Positions 1,044 to 15,841 of a stretch of 32,582 nucleotides of DNA are shown here, piece after piece. This DNA comes from a bacterium. Lineage in GTDB: Bacteria; JADJOY01. The notes beneath the pieces were generated by a model, which did no database searches, had not been told where the DNA came from, and saw only the letters and a program-made list of their open reading frames with translations. The stretch's first letter is position 1, and the number at the start of each line of letters is the position of its first letter. The stretch covers positions 124,001 through 156,582 of the forward strand of contig JAXLQJ010000014.1 of NCBI GenBank assembly GCA_046331705.1, written 5' to 3'. Made by a program: the position numbers and the translations under genes.

Positions 1044-1721
1044 ATGCCGCAAGCCGACGCCAACCCATCGCGCGATCGGAACGCAGTCACGCCACGCTTC
1101 CGTGTGGTGCGCTGGGTGTTCGCGTTCAGCGCCGGCACCATCGCGCTGGTGGGTTACCTCGCCACCAGCCGCTGGAACCTGGCGCGCTTCGACGCGGGCC
1201 TCGCGCCGATCACGCTCTTCACGAGCCTCGATCATCACATCCCATTCGTGCCCCTCGCGTTCTGGGCCTACGTGCTCTACTACCTGCTGGCGATCTCGCC
1301 GACGTTTCTCGCGTGCAACTGGCGCGAGCTGCTCACCATGGCGGTCGCGTACGGCACCGCGTCGGTGATCGCGTGGCTCACGTGGGTGGTGCTGCCGGTG
1401 CGCATGATGGTGCCGCCGCTTCACTGCGCCGGGCTCACGTGCCGCTTGCTGGTGGCGTTCCAGGAGGGCGACGGCGGCGTGAACGTGTTCCCGAGCCTGC
1501 ACGTCGCACACACGGTGCTCGCCGCCGCGTTCCACGTGCACCATCGCAGCCGGGTGGCGCCGTTGGTGCTGGTGGGCACGATGCTGGTGGTCGCCTCCAC
1601 CGTGCTGATCCGACAGCACTACCTGGTGGACCTCCCCGCCGGTGCGCTGACCGCGGCGATCGGCTGGTGGATGGCGCGGCTGACGATGGGGCTGGGCATT
1701 CCGGCACGCGAGCGGGCATGA
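1044..1721 (+). CDS. PAP2-superfamily membrane phosphatase/phosphotransferase (PAP2_3, AUR1/IPC-synthase-like)
   Basis: About six hydrophobic segments, with NVFPSLHVA and STVLIRQHYLVD motifs. Confidence 0.75.
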   Translation: MPQADANPSRDRNAVTPRFRVVRWVFAFSAGTIALVGYLATSRWNLARFDAGLAPITLFTSLDHHIPFVPLAFWAYVLYYLLAISPTFLACNWRELLTMAVAYGTASVIAWLTWVVLPVRMMVPPLHCAGLTCRLLVAFQEGDGGVNVFPSLHVAHTVLAAAFHVHHRSRVAPLVLVGTMLVVASTVLIRQHYLVDLPAGALTAAIGWWMARLTMGLGIPARERA

Positions 1722-2572
1722 GCGTTCGGACACTCATCCTCGGTTGTGGCGACGTCGGCACGCGGCTCGGGCTCGCCCTCGCCGAGCGCGGCCACGAGGT
1801 GTGGGGATTGCGGCGCGACGCCGCGCGTATACCGGGCCCGATCCACGCGCTGGGTGGCGACCTCGCTCGGCCCGAAACGCTGCCGCGCTGGCCCGCAGGT
1901 CTCGATCTCGTGTTCTACACCGCTGCCGCGGACGACCCCTCGGAGGCGGCCTACACGGCCGCGTACGTCGACGGCCTGCGCAACGCGCTCGCATCGATCA
2001 CGGACCAGGGTTGCGCGCCGCGCCGGCTCTTCTACACCTCCAGCACCGCCGTCTATGCGCAGCACGAGGGCGAGTGGGTGGACGAGCGCTCGCCGACCGT
2101 GCCCGAGCACCACGGCGGACGCATCCTGCTCGCCGGCGAGCGGCTCGCCGCGGCGAGCGTCGCCGCCACCACGGTGGTACGCCTCGCCGGCATCTACGGA
2201 CCTGGCCGCACGCGCTTGATCGACGGCATTCGCGCTGGCGAGCTCCATTGCGGAGGGGCGATCGCCGAGATCACCAATCGCATTCACAGCGTGGATTGCG
2301 CGGGCTTCCTCGCTCACCTCGCGACACTCGACGAACCGGCGCCGCTCTACCTCGGCGTCGACGACGAGCCCGCCGATCGCTGCAGCGTGTTCCACTGGCT
2401 GGCCGAGCGACTCGGAGCGCCCGACCCCCATCGCCCCTCGCCGGCGAGCGCGAGCTCGCGCAGGGCTGGCAACAAGCGCTGCAGCAACGCGCTGCTGCGC
2501 GCCACCGGCTATCGACTGCGCTATCCGACGTTTCGAGAAGGCTACGCGGCCCTGCTCGCCGAGCGCGCCTGA
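1718..2572 (+). CDS. NAD-dependent epimerase/dehydratase (atypical SDR, YeeZ-like)
   Basis: ATGA overlap with the upstream gene. Contains the ILGCGDVG Rossmann motif, YTSSTAVY, RLAGIYGPGR, TNRIH and YPTFREG. Confidence 0.85.
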   Translation: MSVRTLILGCGDVGTRLGLALAERGHEVWGLRRDAARIPGPIHALGGDLARPETLPRWPAGLDLVFYTAAADDPSEAAYTAAYVDGLRNALASITDQGCAPRRLFYTSSTAVYAQHEGEWVDERSPTVPEHHGGRILLAGERLAAASVAATTVVRLAGIYGPGRTRLIDGIRAGELHCGGAIAEITNRIHSVDCAGFLAHLATLDEPAPLYLGVDDEPADRCSVFHWLAERLGAPDPHRPSPASASSRRAGNKRCSNALLRATGYRLRYPTFREGYAALLAERA

Positions 2573-2673
2573 GCCAGCGGGGGGCTGCCCCCAGTCCGCC
2601 GCGCGCTGGTGGAGCCACGGCGAAGGGTGGTACTAAGTCGGGTCGCGATGCCACTCGGCCGCAACCCACGCAC

Positions 2674-4236
2674 GTGAGCCGCTTCCTCGTCGATCTCGCC
2701 TGGGTGGCCTCGGGCATCGTCGCCTACGAGGTGCTGCGGTCGTTCGTGCTGCGCTCGGCGGCGCGCCGCATCGAGCGATCGGTCCGCGAGTTCATCCGCG
2801 AGGCCCACCTCTCGCGCGAGGCCTATCGCTTCGCGTCGAAGGTCGTGGTCATCGACGAGATGATGAACGACCCGGTGCTGAACGAGGAGATCCTGCGCAA
2901 GGCCTCGCGCGACGGCATCCGCATCGAGCAAGCGCGGGCGCTCGCCGAGCGCTACCTCGAGGAGATCGTTCCCTCGTTCAACCTGCTCTCGTATTACCAA
3001 GTCGGCTATCGGGTCGCGCGCGCCATCGTGAACGGGCTCTACGAGGTCGTCGTCGATCGCACGAACCTCGAGGCCGTGCAGCGGCTGCCGCGGCGCTCGG
3101 TCGTGATCTTCGTCGCCAACCACCGCAGCAACGTCGACTACGTGCTCATGGCGTACCTGCTCGCCCGCCACATCACGCTCAGCTACGCGGTGGGCGAGTG
3201 GGCGCGCGTCTGGCCGCTCGAGCACCTCTTCAAGAGCTTCGGTTCGTACTTCGTGCGGCGCGGCTTTCGCGACGACTTCTACCACACGGTCCTCAAGCGC
3301 TACGTGCAGCACATCAGCGCGCGCGGCATCACCCAGGGCATCTTCCTCGAGGGCGGCCTGAGCCGAGATGGCCAGCTGCGCGAGCCGAAGGTGGGCTTGC
3401 TCGACTACCTGGTGCAGCTCAAGGCCGATCCCGAGTTCCAGAGCGATCTGGTGTTCGTGCCGGTCGGCATCAACTTCGACTGGGTGCTCGAGGACGAGCA
3501 CCTGCTGGCCGAGCACGCGGGCCGCGTCACCAAGCCCACGCTCGCCGACAAGGCCGCGTCGCTGACGCGGCTGCTCGTCCTGGGGCCGCCGACGCTGATC
3601 GCCAACGCGTGGCGGCTCGCCACCGGCCGCATCAAGCGGCACGGCTACGCAAGCGTTCGCATCGGGGCGCCGGTCTCGTTCGACGAATACGCGCTACGCA
3701 CGGCGAGCGATCCCGAAGCGGGCTCGTCGCTCGCGGGCGGCACCCGCGCGAGTCGAGTCGCCGCCGTGAAGGACTTCGCCGATCACCTCATGCACGCGAT
3801 CGCCCGCGCGATCCCCGTCACGCCGATCCCCCTCGCGTGCGCCGCGTTGCAGCGCCTCGGGCCCGGGCCGGTGACGCACGACGCGCTCCGCGCCGAGATC
3901 GCGCGACTGCGCAAGAGCGCGGAGGCGCGCGGCGCGGCGGTGGTCATGGGTCACGAGTTCGAGGCCGAGCGAGGCGCTCGCGAGCGCCTCGGCGACGAGC
4001 GCGCCGACCGGCGCGGCGGCTTGGTCGAGTTCGAGGAGGCCTACCTGGACGCGGGCGAAGCGCGCGTGCTCCTCGATTGCGCGCTCGAGGTGCTGGTGCG
4101 CCGCCGCGTCGTGCGCATCCGCGCCGGCGCCATCGAGATCCGACCCGACAAGCAAGACGTCGTGCGCTACTACGCGAACTCGATCCGCCGCCATCTGGAG
4201 CCAGACGGTTCCGCCACGGAGTCCGTGAATGCCTAA
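2674..4236 (+). CDS. PlsB/GPAT-like glycerol-3-phosphate acyltransferase family protein
   Basis: Likely GTG start at 2674 followed by a TM helix. Acyltransferase motifs NHRSNVD (HxxxxD), FGSYFVRR, FLEGGLSRDG and FVPVGI are present. Confidence 0.8.
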   Translation: MSRFLVDLAWVASGIVAYEVLRSFVLRSAARRIERSVREFIREAHLSREAYRFASKVVVIDEMMNDPVLNEEILRKASRDGIRIEQARALAERYLEEIVPSFNLLSYYQVGYRVARAIVNGLYEVVVDRTNLEAVQRLPRRSVVIFVANHRSNVDYVLMAYLLARHITLSYAVGEWARVWPLEHLFKSFGSYFVRRGFRDDFYHTVLKRYVQHISARGITQGIFLEGGLSRDGQLREPKVGLLDYLVQLKADPEFQSDLVFVPVGINFDWVLEDEHLLAEHAGRVTKPTLADKAASLTRLLVLGPPTLIANAWRLATGRIKRHGYASVRIGAPVSFDEYALRTASDPEAGSSLAGGTRASRVAAVKDFADHLMHAIARAIPVTPIPLACAALQRLGPGPVTHDALRAEIARLRKSAEARGAAVVMGHEFEAERGARERLGDERADRRGGLVEFEEAYLDAGEARVLLDCALEVLVRRRVVRIRAGAIEIRPDKQDVVRYYANSIRRHLEPDGSATESVNA

Positions 4237-9942: not shown

Positions 9943-11730
9943 ATGGATCCCATCGAGCTCGCGACACTCGTCGACCAGGACCGCGACGCCGCCCGCCACG
10001 CGCTGGATGGGCTGAGCGTCGAGGCGGCGGCACAGCTCCTGAGCCGGATGCCGTCGCGCGACGCGTGGCGGCTGATCTTCCTCGCCCGCGACCCTCAGGC
10101 GCTGGTTCGCGCGCTGCCCAAGACCACGTTCTTCACCCTGTTCCACGAGATCGGTGCCGCCGACGCCGGCGAGCTGCTGCCGCTCGCCAGCCACCAGCAG
10201 GTGGAGTTCTGCCTGGATCTCGAGTGTTGGCAGCGCGGGGAGCTGGCCACGGAGCGGGTGGACGAGTGGCTCCGCCGCCTCGCCGAGGCGGGTGAGCGAA
10301 CTCTCTTTCGGCACCTCGCGAAGCTCGACCTGGAGCTCTTGGTGGCCATGTTCGCGGGCCGGATCCGGGTGGCCAAGCGCAACGAGGACGTCGATCCGCT
10401 GGAAATGGACGATCCCGAGGTCACGACCCTCGACGACCTCTACTACCTCGCCGTCGACGACGCGGAACGAGCGAGCGCACAGGAGCTCATCGAGGTGCTG
10501 CGCGTGCTGCGCAATCGCTCTCCCGAGCTCACCGTCGAGCTCATGGAGGAGCTGCGGCGGGAGCTGCCATCGGAGGCGACCGAGGACGCGCGACGCTTGC
10601 GCGACGGGCGGTTGTGGGACGAGGGGCTGCCGGACTTCGACAGTGCGCTGGAAGTGCTGGCGCGGCTGGATGCGAGCGATCTCGACGACCCGCGCTACCG
10701 CAAGCTCGCCAGCGGCTCGCCGGACGCCGAGGCGACCGGCGCGGAGCTGGTGCCGGTGGTCAACGCCGACGCGAGCTTCCTCGTCGCCGCGCTCGCGCGC
10801 CTGGCGCCGGCGGATCGGGGCCGCGTGGAGCACGAGATCGCCCATCTGACCAACACGGTGCTGGTCGCCACGGTCGGTGACTTCGCGGACCTGGCGGAGG
10901 TGCACCGACAGGCGACCTACGCGGTCGATTGCCTGGGAATCGGCCTCGAGCACGCGAGTCACGGGCAAAGCGCGGACGCCGCCGAGCGACTGCGCACCGT
11001 TCGGCTGGACGCGCTCTTCCGGGTGGGCCGGACGCTCATCCAGGGTCTGGTGACGCGCGCACATCGGCTGGCGGACGCGGCGTCGCGCGCCGGCTTCGGC
11101 GGACGCGCCACCATTCTCGGACACGTGGTGGCGCAAGCGATCGACTCGTTGCGGGCTGCGACGCCCACGTATCCGCGCGCGCTCGACGCCGACGGCGAGA
11201 TCGGAACGCGGTGGATCGAGAGCGTCGCCGATCTGGGCCGGATGGACGCCGTGCTGGCGCGCGGCGAGGCGGCCGCGGTCTTCCTCTTGGATCGTCTCTA
11301 CCCCGCCGCGACGAGCTGGGAAGCCGTGGACTTCAGCGATTGCACGGTGGAGCGCCTGGGCGAGCTCTCGGCGCATCAGGCGCTGGCGACGGTCGCTGCG
11401 AACCTGCTGCTGGGAGGCGACGGAGCGTTCGCGCCGATTCCGGTCGAATCGCTCGAGGAGCTGCGCGGCCGGCTGGCGGCGATTCCCGTGGATGCCACGA
11501 ACGGCCCGGCGCGTGTTCCCGAGCTCGAGCGCTGGCTCGAGCCGCTGCTCGCCGATCTGCCGCTCGCGGTGACGGGCGTGATGCGGCGCCTGGTCGACGA
11601 ATCCGCCAGCGCCTTGCTCAGCCAGCTCGGGCAGCTCGGCGAGAACGAGCCGATCGAGCCGCTGGCGATCCCGACCCTGGCGATTCGGGCCCCCGGCATC
11701 GTGCGCGCCGCCCGCGAAGAGATTCCGTAG
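9943..11730 (+). CDS. DUF6178 family protein
   Basis: DPQALVRALP...HEIGAADAGELL...QVEFCLDLECW...RDGRLWDEGLPDFDSALEV matches this deltaproteobacterial family as I recall it. Confidence 0.65.
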   Translation: MDPIELATLVDQDRDAARHALDGLSVEAAAQLLSRMPSRDAWRLIFLARDPQALVRALPKTTFFTLFHEIGAADAGELLPLASHQQVEFCLDLECWQRGELATERVDEWLRRLAEAGERTLFRHLAKLDLELLVAMFAGRIRVAKRNEDVDPLEMDDPEVTTLDDLYYLAVDDAERASAQELIEVLRVLRNRSPELTVELMEELRRELPSEATEDARRLRDGRLWDEGLPDFDSALEVLARLDASDLDDPRYRKLASGSPDAEATGAELVPVVNADASFLVAALARLAPADRGRVEHEIAHLTNTVLVATVGDFADLAEVHRQATYAVDCLGIGLEHASHGQSADAAERLRTVRLDALFRVGRTLIQGLVTRAHRLADAASRAGFGGRATILGHVVAQAIDSLRAATPTYPRALDADGEIGTRWIESVADLGRMDAVLARGEAAAVFLLDRLYPAATSWEAVDFSDCTVERLGELSAHQALATVAANLLLGGDGAFAPIPVESLEELRGRLAAIPVDATNGPARVPELERWLEPLLADLPLAVTGVMRRLVDESASALLSQLGQLGENEPIEPLAIPTLAIRAPGIVRAAREEIP

Positions 11731-11851: not shown

Positions 11852-12094
11852 CGCGCGCGCTCGGGACCGAAGGCAGCGATCTCACCCGGGCGAGACGAAT
11901 CCGATCGCCGCAAGCGCCCGCCCGCGACGACCCGCCGATCTCCTCGGCAGTCGCCGGCACCTCGTACGACGAGCGCCCAGCGGCGAACCACAATCGAGCC
12001 CATCGGTACCGCGCGCGCGGCGCTCGTCGCCGCGGCGGCGTTACTGCGCGCCTCGACGAGACGAACGGGGGTCAGCGTGGCGGGAGAGCGAGTC

Positions 12095-13540
12095 ATGAAG
12101 GGCGGCCCACAGAATCTGAATCGCAATCGCCCCGGACGCATGGGGCGACGGCGACAGCGCGGCAGTGGGGGCGGTGGTGGCGGAGGCGGAGGCTTTCGCG
12201 TGCCTGCCGGTGCGCCGCAGCTCGATCCCGAGGCGGACGCGGCGCTGATCGCCGAGGCGGGCGCCAACGGCGACTCGCTCACGGACGTGAACGAGCTGCA
12301 GAAGATGACCATCCAGGACCTGAACCGTCTCGCCCGCGAGCTCGGTCTCAAGGGCACGGGCCGCATGCGCAAGCCCGAGCTCATCTTCGAGGTCCTCAAG
12401 ATCAAGAGCGCCGGACAGCGCGCGTTCGTGAGCCAGGGCGTGCTCGAAGTGGTCTCCGACGGCTACGGATTCCTGCGCTCGCCGTTCTTCAGCTACCTGC
12501 CCTGCCCCGAGGACGTGTACGTCTCGCCGCAGCAGATCAAGCGCTTCAACCTGAAGACGGGCGACACGGTGCACGGCCACGTGCGGGCGCCGACGGACAA
12601 GGAAAAGTTCTTCGCCTTGATCCAGATCAGCACCATCAACGGCCAGCCGCCCGAGCGCGCACGCGAGCGCGTCTTCTTCGACAACCTGACGCCGCTGCAT
12701 CCGAATCGGCGCTTCGTGCTCGAGACGACGCCGGACGGCGTCGAGACGCGCATCATGGACATGCTGGTGCCACTCGGCATGGGCCAGCGCGGTCTGATCG
12801 TCGCACCGCCGCGCACCGGCAAGACGGTGCTGCTGCAGAAGATCGCCAACGCCATCGCCACCAATCACCCGGAGGCCGTGCTCATCGTGCTGCTGATCGA
12901 CGAGCGGCCCGAGGAAGTGACGGAGATGGAGCGCTCGGTGAAGGGCGAGGTGGTCGCGTCGACGTTCGACGAGCCACCCGAGCGGCACACGGTGGTCTCG
13001 GAGATGGTGCTCGAGAAGGCGAAGCGCCTCGTCGAGCACCGCTACGACGTCGTGATCCTGCTCGATTCGATCACGCGTCTGGCGCGCGCCTACAACACGG
13101 TGCAGCCGCCAAGCGGGAAGATCCTCTCGGGCGGCGTCGACTCGAACGCGCTTCAGAAGCCCAAGCGCTTCTTCGGGGCGGCGCGCAACATCGAGGAGGG
13201 CGGCAGCCTCACGATCATCGCGACGGCGCTCGTGGAAACCGGCAGCCGCATGGACGAGGTGATCTTCGAGGAGTTCAAGGGCACCGGCAACATGGAGCTC
13301 TCCCTGGACCGCCGACTCGTCGATCGGCGCGTCTTCCCCGCGCTCAACATCGAGCGCTCGGGAACGCGCAAGGAGGAGCTGCTGCTCGCCCCCGAGGAGC
13401 TCGAGGCGATCTACAAGCTGCGCAAGGTGCTCACGAACATGGGCCCGGTCGAGGCGATGGACAAGCTCATCGAGAAGCTCAACGACACCGGCACCAACCG
13501 CACCTTCTTGATGGAGATCGAGAAGATCCTCAAGGGGTGA
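12095..13540 (+). CDS. rho: Transcription termination factor Rho with an Arg/Gly-rich N-terminal extension
   Basis: [33 protein letters not shown] (Walker A), [36 protein letters not shown] and SGTRKEELL. Alternative GTG start at 12077. Confidence 0.98.
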
Positions 13541-14876
13541 GATCGGCGCGGATCTGCTTGAGCAACGCGATGTTGTCGCCGTGACCGGTCTTCTGGGCGG
13601 TGACCTTGCCGAGCATCGGGCGTCCGAGGAGATAGAGATCGCCGATCACGTCGAGCACCTTGTGCCGCGCCAGCTCGTCGGGAAAGCGCAGCGTGGTGTT
13701 CACGATCTTCTCGTCGTCGATCAAGATGAAGTTGTCGATGCGGCCGCCGCCGGCGAGGCCCATCTCGGCCAGCATCCGCACGTCCTTGACGAAACCGAAG
13801 GTGCGCGCGGGCGCGATGCTGTCGCGGAACGACTCGCAGCCCCGGTGCACGAACGTGAAGTCTTGCCTGCCGACCGGCGGCGGGTACTCGAGGACGTAAC
13901 GGACGGAGAACTCGTCCGAAGGCTCGATCGAGATGTACTCGCCGCTCGGCGATTCGTCGCCGACGACGTACTTCCGCGTCACGCGAATCGGCTCGATTCG
14001 CGCGTCCTGCTCCTCGATCCCGGCGTCCTCGATGATGCGGCAGAAATCGACCGCGGAGCCGTCCATGATCGGGACCTCGCCATCCATCTTCACCAGCAGG
14101 TTGGTGATGCCGTAGCTGTGCAACGCCGCGAGGAAGTGCTCGACCGTGCGGGCCTCGACGCCGTCGTTGCCGAGCGTGGTCGCGTAGCCGCTGGCGCGGA
14201 CGTGGTCGAGATGCGCCGGGAACGCCTTCCCGGTGGCGATGCTGCCGAACAGGATCCCGCTACCCGGGGGCAGTGGCGTGAGGATCAAACCGCCCTTGAT
14301 CCCGGAGTGCAGACCCTGGCCGCACACCACCATGCTGCGCCGAAGCGTTCGCTGCCGCTGGCCATGCGGGTCGGGCGGCCCAGGCAACACGGAAGGTCCC
14401 AGCGCCTCGCCCACCTGGGCCGCCAGGTTGGTGCGAAACACCGGCGCCGGCGTGTTGCCGGCTTCCATGATCCGGCTGCGCAGCTCGCGGTTCTCGCGCA
14501 CCAGACGGCGATGCTCGAGAGCGCGAGCGAGCGTGAGCAGAAGCTGCTCGCGGCTCAGCGGCTTCTCGATGAAATCGAATGCACCGAGCTTCACCGCCTG
14601 GACCGCGGTGTGCACGTTCGCATGCCCCGAGATCATGATGATCTCGATGTCGGGGCTCGCCTTCTTGATGTCGCGCAACAGCTGGATGCCGTCGAGACCG
14701 GGCAGCCAGATGTCGAGCAGCACGGCATCGGGCTTGAACTGGCGAATCGCGGGAAGCGCCTGATTGCCGTCGCCGACCGAGGAGGTCCGATAGCCCTCGT
14801 CCTCGAGAACTCCGCGGACGGTCCGCTGGATGGCGTCCTCGTCGTCGACGATGAGGACGTGAAACGTTGGATTCAT
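13530..14876 (-). CDS. lpxC: Response-regulator receiver domain fused to UDP-3-O-acyl-GlcNAc deacetylase (REC-LpxC)
   Basis: Residues 1-120 form a REC domain (VLIVDDE, LLDIWLP, MISGH, FIEKP). Residues about 175-448 are LpxC ([46 protein letters not shown]). Single uninterrupted frame; alternative ATG at 14894. Confidence 0.95.
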
Positions 14877-14954
14877 GTTCGCGGTGGCCCGCATCACGGC
14901 GTCGCGCTGGTGAGCGGAGAGAACGAATCGGTGGGACCGCGCAAGCGGTGCGCG

Positions 14955-14983
14955 AAGCTCGCACAGCACCTACCCCTTGTCAA
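14955..14983 (-). promoter_or_regulatory. Putative sigma70 promoter of REC-lpxC (TTGACA-N17-GAGCTT, with an extended TG)
   Basis: Perfect -35 TTGACA at 14983-14978 on the minus strand. The -10 is a weak match. Confidence 0.45.
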
Positions 14984-15049
14984 ACCCGCGCGGTGGCTCG
15001 CCGCGAGGCGAGGCGACGGCGCGAAACCCCTTCTGCGCACGCGTTTTGC

Positions 15050-15078
15050 TTGCCGGTGGGTGGCCCCAGTGCTAGCCT
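15050..15078 (+). promoter_or_regulatory. Putative sigma70 promoter of the rimP-nusA-infB operon (TTGCCG-N17-TAGCCT)
   Basis: 17-nt spacer with a TG extension before the -10. Confidence 0.45.
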
Positions 15079-15090
15079 CGCTGGTTTGAG

Positions 15091-15231
15091 ATGGACCTCG
15101 AATTCGGCGGGCGAGGTCCGTTGGTGCTTGCCCGAGATCGCTCGGGAAACCACTCACAAGGTGGGGTCGAAGCGGTCGGACGTTGCAGTCGTCCCGCGCC
15201 GGGCGGATGGGTGCGCGTTGCATCCACTCGC
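15091..15231 (+). promoter_or_regulatory. Structured 5' leader of rimP (several hairpins; the last resembles the rimP leader motif)
   Basis: Stems GGACCTCG/CGAGGTCC, CCCGAG/CTCGGG, CCAC/GTGG, GGACG/CGTCC and TGGGTGC/GCATCCA lie in tandem before the RBS. Confidence 0.4.
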
Positions 15232-15259
15232 GGAGGGACGACGCGGATGAAGGAAGGGA

Positions 15260-15841
15260 GTGAATCGTCGGGAGATCGCGGAGAACGTTCGAGCCCTCGT
15301 GGAGCCCACCGTACGCGCCGTGGGTTGCGAGGTGCTCGACGTGGAGATGCTGGGATCGGAATCGCGACCTACGATTCGCATCACGCTGGACCACGAGCAA
15401 GGCGTCAGCATCGAACACTGTGCGGAAGTCAGCCGGCGCGTGAGCCCCTTGTTGGACGTCGAGGACTTGATCAGCGGCTCGTACCAGTTGGAGGTGTCGT
15501 CCCCAGGTCTGGATCGACCACTCAAGCGCCTCATGGATTTCGACAGGTTTCAGGACAAGCGGGCCAAGATCGAGACCCGCAACCCAGTGGTTCCAGGACG
15601 AAACCAACGGCGTTTCGTCGGCAAGCTCCGAGGATCGCGAGACCAGAACATCGAGCTCGAGGAAGAAGGTGGGCAGCTCATCTCGATCCCGTTCACGGCC
15701 ATCGAACGAGCGCACCTGATCTACGAGTTCGGCGAGGAAGATTTCGGCAACCGAGGCAAGTCGCACGGACCGAGCGTACCGAGGCGCAGGAGCGATCGGG
15801 GCGCGAAGCACGGCTCGAGTGACCCTTCGAGAGGTGAGTAG
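15260..15841 (+). CDS. rimP: Ribosome maturation factor RimP
   Basis: GVSIEHCAEVSR, LDVEDLI and YQLEVSSPGLDRPL; lies upstream of nusA. Confidence 0.96.
   Translation: MNRREIAENVRALVEPTVRAVGCEVLDVEMLGSESRPTIRITLDHEQGVSIEHCAEVSRRVSPLLDVEDLISGSYQLEVSSPGLDRPLKRLMDFDRFQDKRAKIETRNPVVPGRNQRRFVGKLRGSRDQNIELEEEGGQLISIPFTAIERAHLIYEFGEEDFGNRGKSHGPSVPRRRSDRGAKHGSSDPSRGE

Follow-up and report, generated by a model that had tools for sequence, protein, structure and literature searches.

A receiver domain fused to LpxC in uncultured bacteria: a candidate for phosphorylation-controlled lipid A synthesis with an NtrY-type kinase as its likely partner

A 32,582-nucleotide stretch of a bacterial genome assembled from metagenomic data (contig JAXLQJ010000014.1 of assembly GCA_046331705.1, positions 124,001 to 156,582; hereafter the window, with positions numbered from its first base) carries a single gene in which the receiver domain (REC) of a response regulator is joined to a complete LpxC, the deacetylase of the committed step in making lipid A. 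The best explanation of our observations is that the fused protein is the organism's housekeeping LpxC, built as a response regulator. We further consider it probable that this LpxC is controlled by phosphorylation, with an NtrY-type histidine kinase as its partner, so that phosphorylation may act in these bacteria as a direct switch on the synthesis of outer-membrane lipid. The sequences themselves are not new, and are common in databases as plain 'LpxC'; it is their biology that is undescribed in the searchable literature.

The gene occupies positions 13530..14876 of the minus strand and runs from an ATG at 14876..14874 through 448 codons to a TGA stop at 13532..13530, as established from the open reading frame (ORF), its translation, a codon check and profile matches. 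A preliminary description of this DNA had reported a 448-residue ORF at 13530-14876; the ORF, its length and its coordinates stand, while the strand is corrected to minus, the plus-strand translation of the same interval being likewise open. The N-terminal part of the product matches the Pfam Response_reg family (PF00072) over residues 7-114 (14535..14858, on the minus strand, as are all parts of the gene given below; E 2.2e-31, 108.7 bits with a cut-off of 30.2). The C-terminal part matches Pfam LpxC (PF03331) over residues 175-442 (13551..14354; E 2.8e-80, 270.1 bits with a cut-off of 27) and passes the NCBIfam lpxC model TIGR00325 with 249.3 bits (cut-off 187.25). Among NCBIfam models the receiver is best described by that of NtrX (residues 6-138). 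Among solved structures it is closest to chain 5m7n (E 9.4e-33), which was deposited under the name 'nitrogen assimilation regulatory protein' and which we take to be Brucella NtrX. The fused protein nevertheless reaches only 150.5 bits against the NtrX equivalog model NF051870, over the REC region only, where the cut-off is 600, and 192.9 bits against the LpxC-FabZ model NF009667, over the LpxC part only, where the cut-off is 465; having no AAA+ domain recognizable by Pfam, it also falls outside the sigma54-dependent NtrC family.

The phosphorylation residues of the receiver are all present, namely D11 and D12 of the acidic pocket (14841-14846), the phospho-acceptor D55 (14712-14714), the switch residue S83 (14628-14630), F102 (14571-14573) and K105-P106 (14559-14564). 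In LpxC, three residues (here H247, H405 and D409) serve as zinc ligands and four (E246, H432, T359 and K406) in catalysis, and these are found in the motifs TVEH (E246-H247, 14136-14141), ARTFGF (T359, 13800-13802), HKVLD (H405/K406, 13659-13664; D409, 13650-13652) and TGH (H432, 13581-13583), together with D413 at 13638-13640. Each was checked at the level of its codon; the receiver positions given in the preliminary description are exact, and the zinc and catalytic motifs that it named are present. None of these 15 residues (D11, D12, D55, S83, F102, K105, P106; E246, H247, T359, H405, K406, D409, D413, H432) varies in any of 99 two-domain sequences with identities of 51-96%. The REC and LpxC domains are, by this conservation, both intact and under purifying selection, and the LpxC domain appears complete for catalysis.

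Structure prediction gives a corresponding picture. An AlphaFold2 model computed from an alignment of 68 rows (mean predicted local distance difference test score, pLDDT, 81.3; predicted template-modelling score, pTM, 0.72) consists of a well-folded receiver, a disordered stretch at about residues 139-167 and a well-folded LpxC. The receiver fold of five strands alternating with helices extends over residues 6-139, mostly at pLDDT above 90. It ends in a long alpha-5/linker helix (residues 109-139, 14460..14552), assigned from the modelled secondary structure and from homology to the REC-to-AAA+ linker of sigma54-type regulators. This helix leads into a Pro/Gly-rich flexible linker (residues 140-172, 14361..14459; pLDDT below 50 for 139-161 and 165-167), the sequence of which varies within the phylum. 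The LpxC part matches Aquifex aeolicus LpxC in a Foldseek search (3p3c and 2jt2; E about 7e-28, target-normalised template-modelling scores of 0.85-0.87) and aligns with the solved Pseudomonas aeruginosa LpxC (E 2.4e-50) such that the zinc and catalytic motifs are matched. The match to TIGR00325 ends at position 274 of 297, and that to the P. aeruginosa chain at approximately residue 283 of 305, and the fused LpxC therefore lacks a C-terminal tail.

The suspicion that the fusion is an artefact, either a chimera made in assembly or a pair of genes read as a single one, arises readily with a metagenome-assembled genome of 118 contigs (G000; 8.17 Mb, 95.67% complete, the window itself being 70% G+C), and in one relative of the same genus the gene does fall into three reading frames (G003:C4:92243-93576), for which sequencing indels, rather than a pseudogene, are our guess. 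This explanation is already refuted, because two independent studies have each yielded a contig that runs across the domain junction free of indels, one of them (X1, record 4) covering 14131-15100 with 0 differences and the other (X2, record 13) covering 13759-15100 with 2 differences. In addition, the frame is open without a stop, and the same architecture recurs in the five remaining genomes of the phylum, in all 120 of the best database matches and in dozens of other assemblies; the doubt over the junction raised in the preliminary description is thereby settled. A 390-base contig of a metatranscriptome library covers 14056-14445, which attests to the presence of the sequence, not to its transcription or to an RNA end. 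Near-identical sequence occurs in contigs of metagenome runs whose labels are anaerobic digester for X1 and activated sludge for X2 and X7.

The fused gene is also the one Pfam LpxC match in G000, which answers the question, posed in the preliminary description, of whether a second lpxC exists in the genome. Our sample of the phylum comprised six species genomes (G000-G005) from one family and two genera, 5.5-8.4 Mb in size, and each of the six has one LpxC locus, in the long-frame form. The lpxD, lpxA and lpxB genes score 354.7, 338.9 and 313.9 bits, all above their cut-offs, and are clustered on contig 9 of G000 (C9:52917-62346), apart from the contig of lpxC; an lpxK-like match in the same cluster (C9:52917-53668) is split over two frames and is below its cut-off, which may reflect either an assembly frameshift or a divergent gene. 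As the sole LpxC of the organism, and one that keeps every catalytic residue, the fused protein is expected to work as the enzyme.

The fusion is not confined to this phylum. A search covering 5.8 billion proteins was made, and the best 120 matches were analysed; PF00072 and PF03331 occur together in every one of the 120. Proteins shorter than 520 residues (REC-LpxC) account for 98 of them, and the other 22 are approximately 720-770 residues long with Sigma54_activat and AAA lid domains between the receiver and LpxC. Their database names are LpxC or NtrX only, and the organisms given for them are Candidatus Binatia, Deltaproteobacteria and Tectomicrobia. Full-length relatives in species genomes stand under labels that include Binatia, Syntrophobacter(aceae), Thermodesulfobacteriota, Myxococcales, Desulfurellales and Nitrospinota; such labels were attached to metagenome bins by their depositors and are not reliable as taxonomy. 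The fused form is present in two (G022, and G008 in a frame of 757 residues) of 35 sampled genomes of other families, and in five of five further genomes with the fused gene it is the only LpxC match. In the phylum of the two-domain carrier G041, LpxC was found in 58 of 61 sampled genomes, with 13 matches in 13 genomes lying in frames of at least 417 residues and being the sole LpxC match in 12 of these; the presence of REC in that phylum was checked for G041 only. The architecture thus recurs in independent genomes and assemblies, the lack of which the preliminary description had named as a ground for refuting it, and to judge from these sequences the REC-LpxC fusion is widespread in uncultured lineages.

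The kinase that might act on the receiver was left unnamed in the preliminary description, and the window ORFs that were scanned for families yielded no histidine kinase domain. A candidate is provided by the related loci, 62 of which were surveyed using crude ORF calls followed by clustering. In 49 of the 62 (37 two-domain and 12 three-domain loci) the gene directly upstream, on the same strand and separated by a median of 13 bases, encodes a kinase of approximately 744 residues with the domains NtrY_N (36.5 bits, cut-off 23.2), HAMP, PAS, HisKA and HATPase_c. The other 13 loci include four with too little upstream sequence, five from the window's own phylum and four that are unclear in the crude calls. 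Two-domain loci with Binatia or delta proteobacterium labels (L019-L050) have the conserved gene order yebC-ruvC-ruvA-ruvB-ntrY-REC-lpxC-DUF2203-queG.

G000 contains one clear orthologue of this kinase (C41:46814-48994; E 6.5e-173, 42% identity over residues 19-731), the next-best kinase of the genome reaching only 6.1e-45. It has the same series of domains, with NtrY_N just below the cut-off at 20.4 bits, and a DUF4390 gene comes before it; the gene after it is not a regulator gene and lies on the opposite strand. The pair of DUF4390 gene and NtrY-type kinase (C41:46760-48991 in G000; L104:845-3681) is present in six of six genomes of the phylum, with no receiver in the flanks that were read. 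In its dimerization and histidine phosphotransfer (DHp) region the C41 kinase is 62% identical (median) to 45 kinases beside fused genes, as against 41% over the whole protein. The synteny suggests that the lone kinase and the kinase-less fused regulator of this phylum are the pair that is operonic elsewhere, and an NtrY-type kinase is the most likely partner of the fused LpxC.

The three-domain relatives indicate how such a protein may have arisen. When the LpxC part alone was searched against 1.84 billion representative proteins, almost all of the approximately 48 best representatives had a C-terminal LpxC behind 140-460 extra residues, and ordinary LpxC proteins (270-320 residues) came next, at 46% identity or less. 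We classified 150 listed representatives, dropping 24 with an LpxC match of fewer than 245 residues or none, and entered the first 30 of the 81 unfused representatives into a tree of 76 rows (quick IQ-TREE, with support from the Shimodaira-Hasegawa-like approximate likelihood ratio test, SH-aLRT, only). All fused forms fall into one LpxC clade of 48 rows (SH-aLRT 97), which is made up of 20 two-domain forms (the query included), 15 three-domain forms, six that are N-terminally cut, two REC-x, one with a receiver and a helix-turn-helix segment (REC-HTH) and four that are apparently unfused. Two- and three-domain forms are interspersed in this clade, the starred branches forcing at least five changes of the two-domain state, and the nearest rows to the query are one of each (two-domain P0125 and three-domain P0127), with weak support of 81-83.

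The long forms, of about 740 residues, have the order REC-AAA+-HTH-LpxC (22 forms within P0006-P0106, and also P0123-P0154). In the 742-residue P0012, for example, residues 4-454 align with positions 2-451 of the 452 of the NtrX model, with a score of 328.8 bits that is below the equivalog cut-off, and lpxC then follows at 467-737. Walker A is kept in 22 of 22 long forms, GAFTGA, the sigma54-contacting loop, in none of the 22, and the Asp-Glu pair of Walker B in none of the 12 examined, having been changed to Asp-Ala; the long forms are thus whole NtrX-like regulators with an LpxC attached, and their AAA+ domain has clearly decayed. Intermediates are represented by REC-HTH-LpxC (P0139) and by a form with a partial AAA+ domain (P0142). 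Over residues 6-133, its receiver and linker helix, the fused protein gives a gap-free alignment of 55% identity with residues 25-152 of the sigma54 regulator at locus L075, which is unfused, and the aligned stretch stops 8 residues short of the AAA+ domain of that regulator, which starts at residue 161; we therefore infer that the two-domain form arose by deletion, through loss of the AAA+-HTH part. The L075 regulator, in which GSFTGA and Walker B are intact, belongs to an unfused cluster (L075:1941-7359) of lpxC, a DUF4390 gene, an NtrY-like kinase gene and the regulator gene, and this cluster possibly represents the pre-fusion state.

By these comparisons the fused protein is a descendant of an NtrX-like regulator, and not a member of the NtrX family. 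In the course of events that we envisage, a sigma54-type regulator controlling lpxC would have become fused to LpxC, after which its AAA+ domain would have decayed and been repeatedly lost, with control shifting from transcription to the enzyme itself. The family would then constitute a stepwise record, from the unfused cluster to the full fusion with a decayed AAA+ domain, to REC-HTH and finally to REC only. We advance more tentatively, as a possibility of roughly balanced merit, the whole of the wider proposal: that LpxC captured the transcription factor of which it was the target, whose ATPase and DNA-binding parts then decayed and were lost several times, that NtrY is a sensor of the envelope or of lipopolysaccharide (LPS), and that LpxC is here under a control which is neither proteolytic nor transcriptional.

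How the protein might work can be outlined from its parts. It comprises an NtrX/NtrC-type receiver and linker helix, joined through some 30 residues of flexible linker to a complete LpxC, and NtrY would phosphorylate D55 of the receiver. In NtrC-family receivers the alpha4-beta5-alpha5 face and the linker helix mediate dimer rearrangement. A switch of these elements in the fused protein, which probably acts as a dimer through its receiver, would alter the packing of the receiver on LpxC or its release from it, and the outcome would be a post-translational change in LpxC activity or, alternatively, in stability. The transfer of phosphate from NtrY to D55, any effect on LpxC and the direction of that effect are all inferred, and the lowering of lpxC expression by the kinase in published cases, under the conditions used there, is only a hint at direction.

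Several points weigh against this proposal. Phosphorylation and its effect on LpxC are predictions from sequence. The fused gene and the C41 kinase gene are not adjacent in G000, so that their pairing rests on synteny elsewhere and on the conserved DHp region. The linker between REC and LpxC is predicted by AlphaFold2 to be disordered; a complex prediction of REC (residues 1-140) with LpxC (172-448) returned a score of 0.00, which is no answer and is uninformative on docking either way. Four apparently unfused LpxC representatives lie inside the fused clade, although these may be truncated gene calls or fissions. A canonical NtrX is encoded at C116:2015-3157 of G000 (L108; 590.7 bits with a cut-off of 600; cut by the end of the 3158-base contig) and, if it is this organism's, could be the main partner of NtrY. 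It is the only match in G000 that comes near the cut-off. Otherwise it may have entered the bin as a contaminant, or may serve NtrY as a second partner; the G+C content of the contig is uninformative on whether it belongs. We have not adopted it as the partner of NtrY, given that it is truncated at the end of so short a contig and was not found in the five other genomes of the phylum at E <= 1e-100. Lastly, because a LapB-like protein with tetratricopeptide repeats (TPR) and a zinc ribbon is encoded in G000, control of the proteolytic or LapB type may be at work in addition or in its place. This protein (C36; L103:1435-2808, minus strand) has 458 residues, an N-terminal membrane segment, TPR and a C-terminal Zn_ribbon_LapB domain (31.1 bits). 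The zinc-ribbon family PF18073 was set aside as a marker of LapB, as control matches were obtained in 10 of 14 genomes, Gram-positives included, and it is thus unspecific.

This last point leads to an alternative in which the receiver would set the amount of LpxC rather than its activity, phosphorylation exposing or hiding a degron or recruiting a protease or LapB-like partner, in replacement of the C-terminal FtsH degron of the Escherichia coli enzyme. Receiver proteins such as RssB and CpdR are known to direct proteolysis, and the missing C-terminal tail of the fused LpxC would suit such a role, as would the LapB-like protein of G000. Proteolysis is moreover the common theme in LpxC control, and lineages without the degron use other means, according to a 2025 review of lipid A regulation (PMC12444477). 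No protease link was seen in the neighbourhoods scanned, however, and the LapB match is weak (64.1 bits with an equivalog cut-off of 363); the sequence does not separate control of stability from direct control of activity, and we regard this alternative as unlikely while taking it seriously.

The two remaining alternatives deny that the receiver regulates LpxC. In one of them the receiver would be a relic of the fused regulator, or would serve constitutively for dimerisation or as a scaffold. The decay of the AAA+ domain in the three-domain relatives illustrates that parts of a fused regulator can lose their function, and in this phylum no kinase gene is adjacent, yet the seven phosphorylation residues are unchanged in all 99 sequences in spite of the low identity of some of them, and an NtrY-type kinase is found either directly upstream (49 of 62 loci) or as a lone kinase (six of six genomes of the phylum). 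A relic would not be expected to keep both the phosphorylation residues and the kinase, and we consider this explanation quite improbable. In the other, LpxC would be a ligand-sensing input, or 'trigger enzyme', that reports UDP-3-O-acyl-GlcNAc to the NtrY/NtrX pathway. The three-domain relatives do keep an HTH-like segment (PF02954 is listed for one of the 22 long forms, P0034), and some members might therefore bind DNA, but the absence of GAFTGA from all 22 long forms argues against such an output, the two-domain protein has no output but LpxC, and a sole LpxC with all of its catalytic residues would have to work as the enzyme; we give this idea very little credence. Phosphorylation-dependent control of LpxC with NtrY as the partner thus remains the reading that we favour.

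The start of the gene and its surroundings are consistent among relatives. An in-frame GTG at 14969 is an alternative start that would give 479 residues, but the ATG at 14876 is the likely start, because the N-terminus formed by this ATG and the motif MNxxFH(V/I)LIVDDE is kept among orthologous loci whereas the stretch upstream of the ATG varies. The GTG falls within a conserved element, TTGACA-N15-TGnGAGCTT (14955..14983, minus strand), which is kept in the five orthologous loci read, lies approximately 70-100 bases 5' of the ATG and might conceivably be a promoter. A scan of 13300-15400 with sigma70 promoter and terminator consensus sequences gave 0 sites, so that this element was not called, nor was any terminator-like site found where the fused gene overlaps its downstream neighbour. 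A sigma54 promoter consensus had eight matches in the window with 8.38 expected by chance, none of them on the strand of the fused gene upstream of it.

The downstream neighbour is a convergent rho gene (12077..13540, plus strand; named from the ORF translation), the 3' end of which overlaps that of the fused gene by 11 bases (13530-13540). On the other side, and divergent from the fused gene, rimP (15260..15841, plus strand; RimP_N and DUF150_C) is the first gene of rimP-nusA-infB. The rimP and nusA genes flank the fused gene in six of six orthologous loci read, and rho is kept as a neighbour in five of the six (L003, L004, L005, L009 and L002, the last from the window's own genome); it is outside L006, and is found further out in the longer L017. 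Upstream of rho, a DUF6178 protein is encoded at 9952-11727 (plus strand) and is kept in relatives. The window also contains an 850-residue frame with Acyltransferase and GPAT_C domains (1684-4233, plus strand), a PAP2 protein gene and a 993-residue frame that ends in a GDSL lipase domain.

LpxC is the point at which the synthesis of outer-membrane lipid is controlled, and it is a drug target. The modes of its control listed in the 2025 review are proteolysis (by FtsH/LapB/YejM or by Lon), transcription and, in some bacteria, protein partners (PMC12444477). The preliminary description knew of no characterized REC-LpxC, and we too found no description of such a protein in the full-text literature outside subscription journals and the response-regulator censuses; in the main text of the review just cited the terms 'receiver', 'response regulator', 'fusion' and 'fused' occur 0 times each. 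As far as sequence goes, it is supported that the protein is a response regulator with an enzymatic output and probably represents a new mode of LpxC control. If this is true, phosphorylation-dependent control of the enzyme would be a fourth, direct mode, and one acting on the sole copy of LpxC in whole lineages. To the preliminary description the present analysis adds a kinase partner, the three-domain sister forms, an evolutionary path and the wide distribution.

Among enzymes with a receiver, CheB offers a model of mechanism. Before phosphorylation, its receiver covers the active site. In the fused protein, as in CheB, a receiver at the N-terminus is followed by a flexible linker and, at the C-terminus, by a hydrolase, although the output fold, the receiver subfamily and the kinase (CheA) are all unrelated, and the likeness is meant as a model of mechanism, not as a claim of membership. 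A natural fusion of LpxC to another domain is already known in LpxC-FabZ (NF009667), but there the partner is C-terminal and metabolic, whereas here it is N-terminal and belongs to signalling. The FtsH/LapB/YejM system of Escherichia coli acts on the same enzyme and uses the committed step as its control point, but does so by proteolysis via a C-terminal degron (PMC12444477), while the fused LpxC stops before this tail and carries a receiver instead.

The NtrY/NtrX system of the alphaproteobacteria is related in that the receiver has NtrX and 5m7n as its best matches and that the kinase upstream in 49 of 62 loci has the NtrY_N-HAMP-PAS-HisKA-HATPase series; it differs in that the fused protein is without AAA+ and HTH and that the output is the enzyme itself. 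Loss of NtrYX in Rhodobacter sphaeroides is reported to raise lpxC mRNA 8.8-fold and to raise LPS, the control of lpxC by NtrX in Rhodobacter being transcriptional and described as indirect (PMC7240162). The NtrC-family regulator DVU2934 of Desulfovibrio vulgaris has lpxC as its single target, and in Syntrophobacter fumaroxidans lpxC adjoins the operon of the orthologous regulator (PMC3333781), an arrangement that the linkage of lpxC and regulator at L075 resembles. In Desulfovibrio alaskensis, a mutant of the Dde_3000 kinase upregulates lpxC alone, via the sigma54 activator Dde_3003 (PMC4045070). The review classes the effects of NtrYX and of the Desulfovibrio systems on lpxC as transcriptional (PMC12444477). 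As described, the DVU2931/DVU2934 and Dde_3000/Dde_3003 systems are like the one proposed here in consisting of a kinase and an NtrC-family regulator dedicated to lpxC. The role of NtrYX in the envelope has so far been poorly understood, and the fusion, as a 'Rosetta stone' that physically links an NtrY/NtrX-type system to LpxC, therefore suggests a hypothesis both for that role and for the two-component systems of Desulfovibrio that act on lpxC. The Desulfovibrio regulators activate a sigma54 promoter of lpxC; in the bacteria considered here, the regulator is joined to the enzyme.

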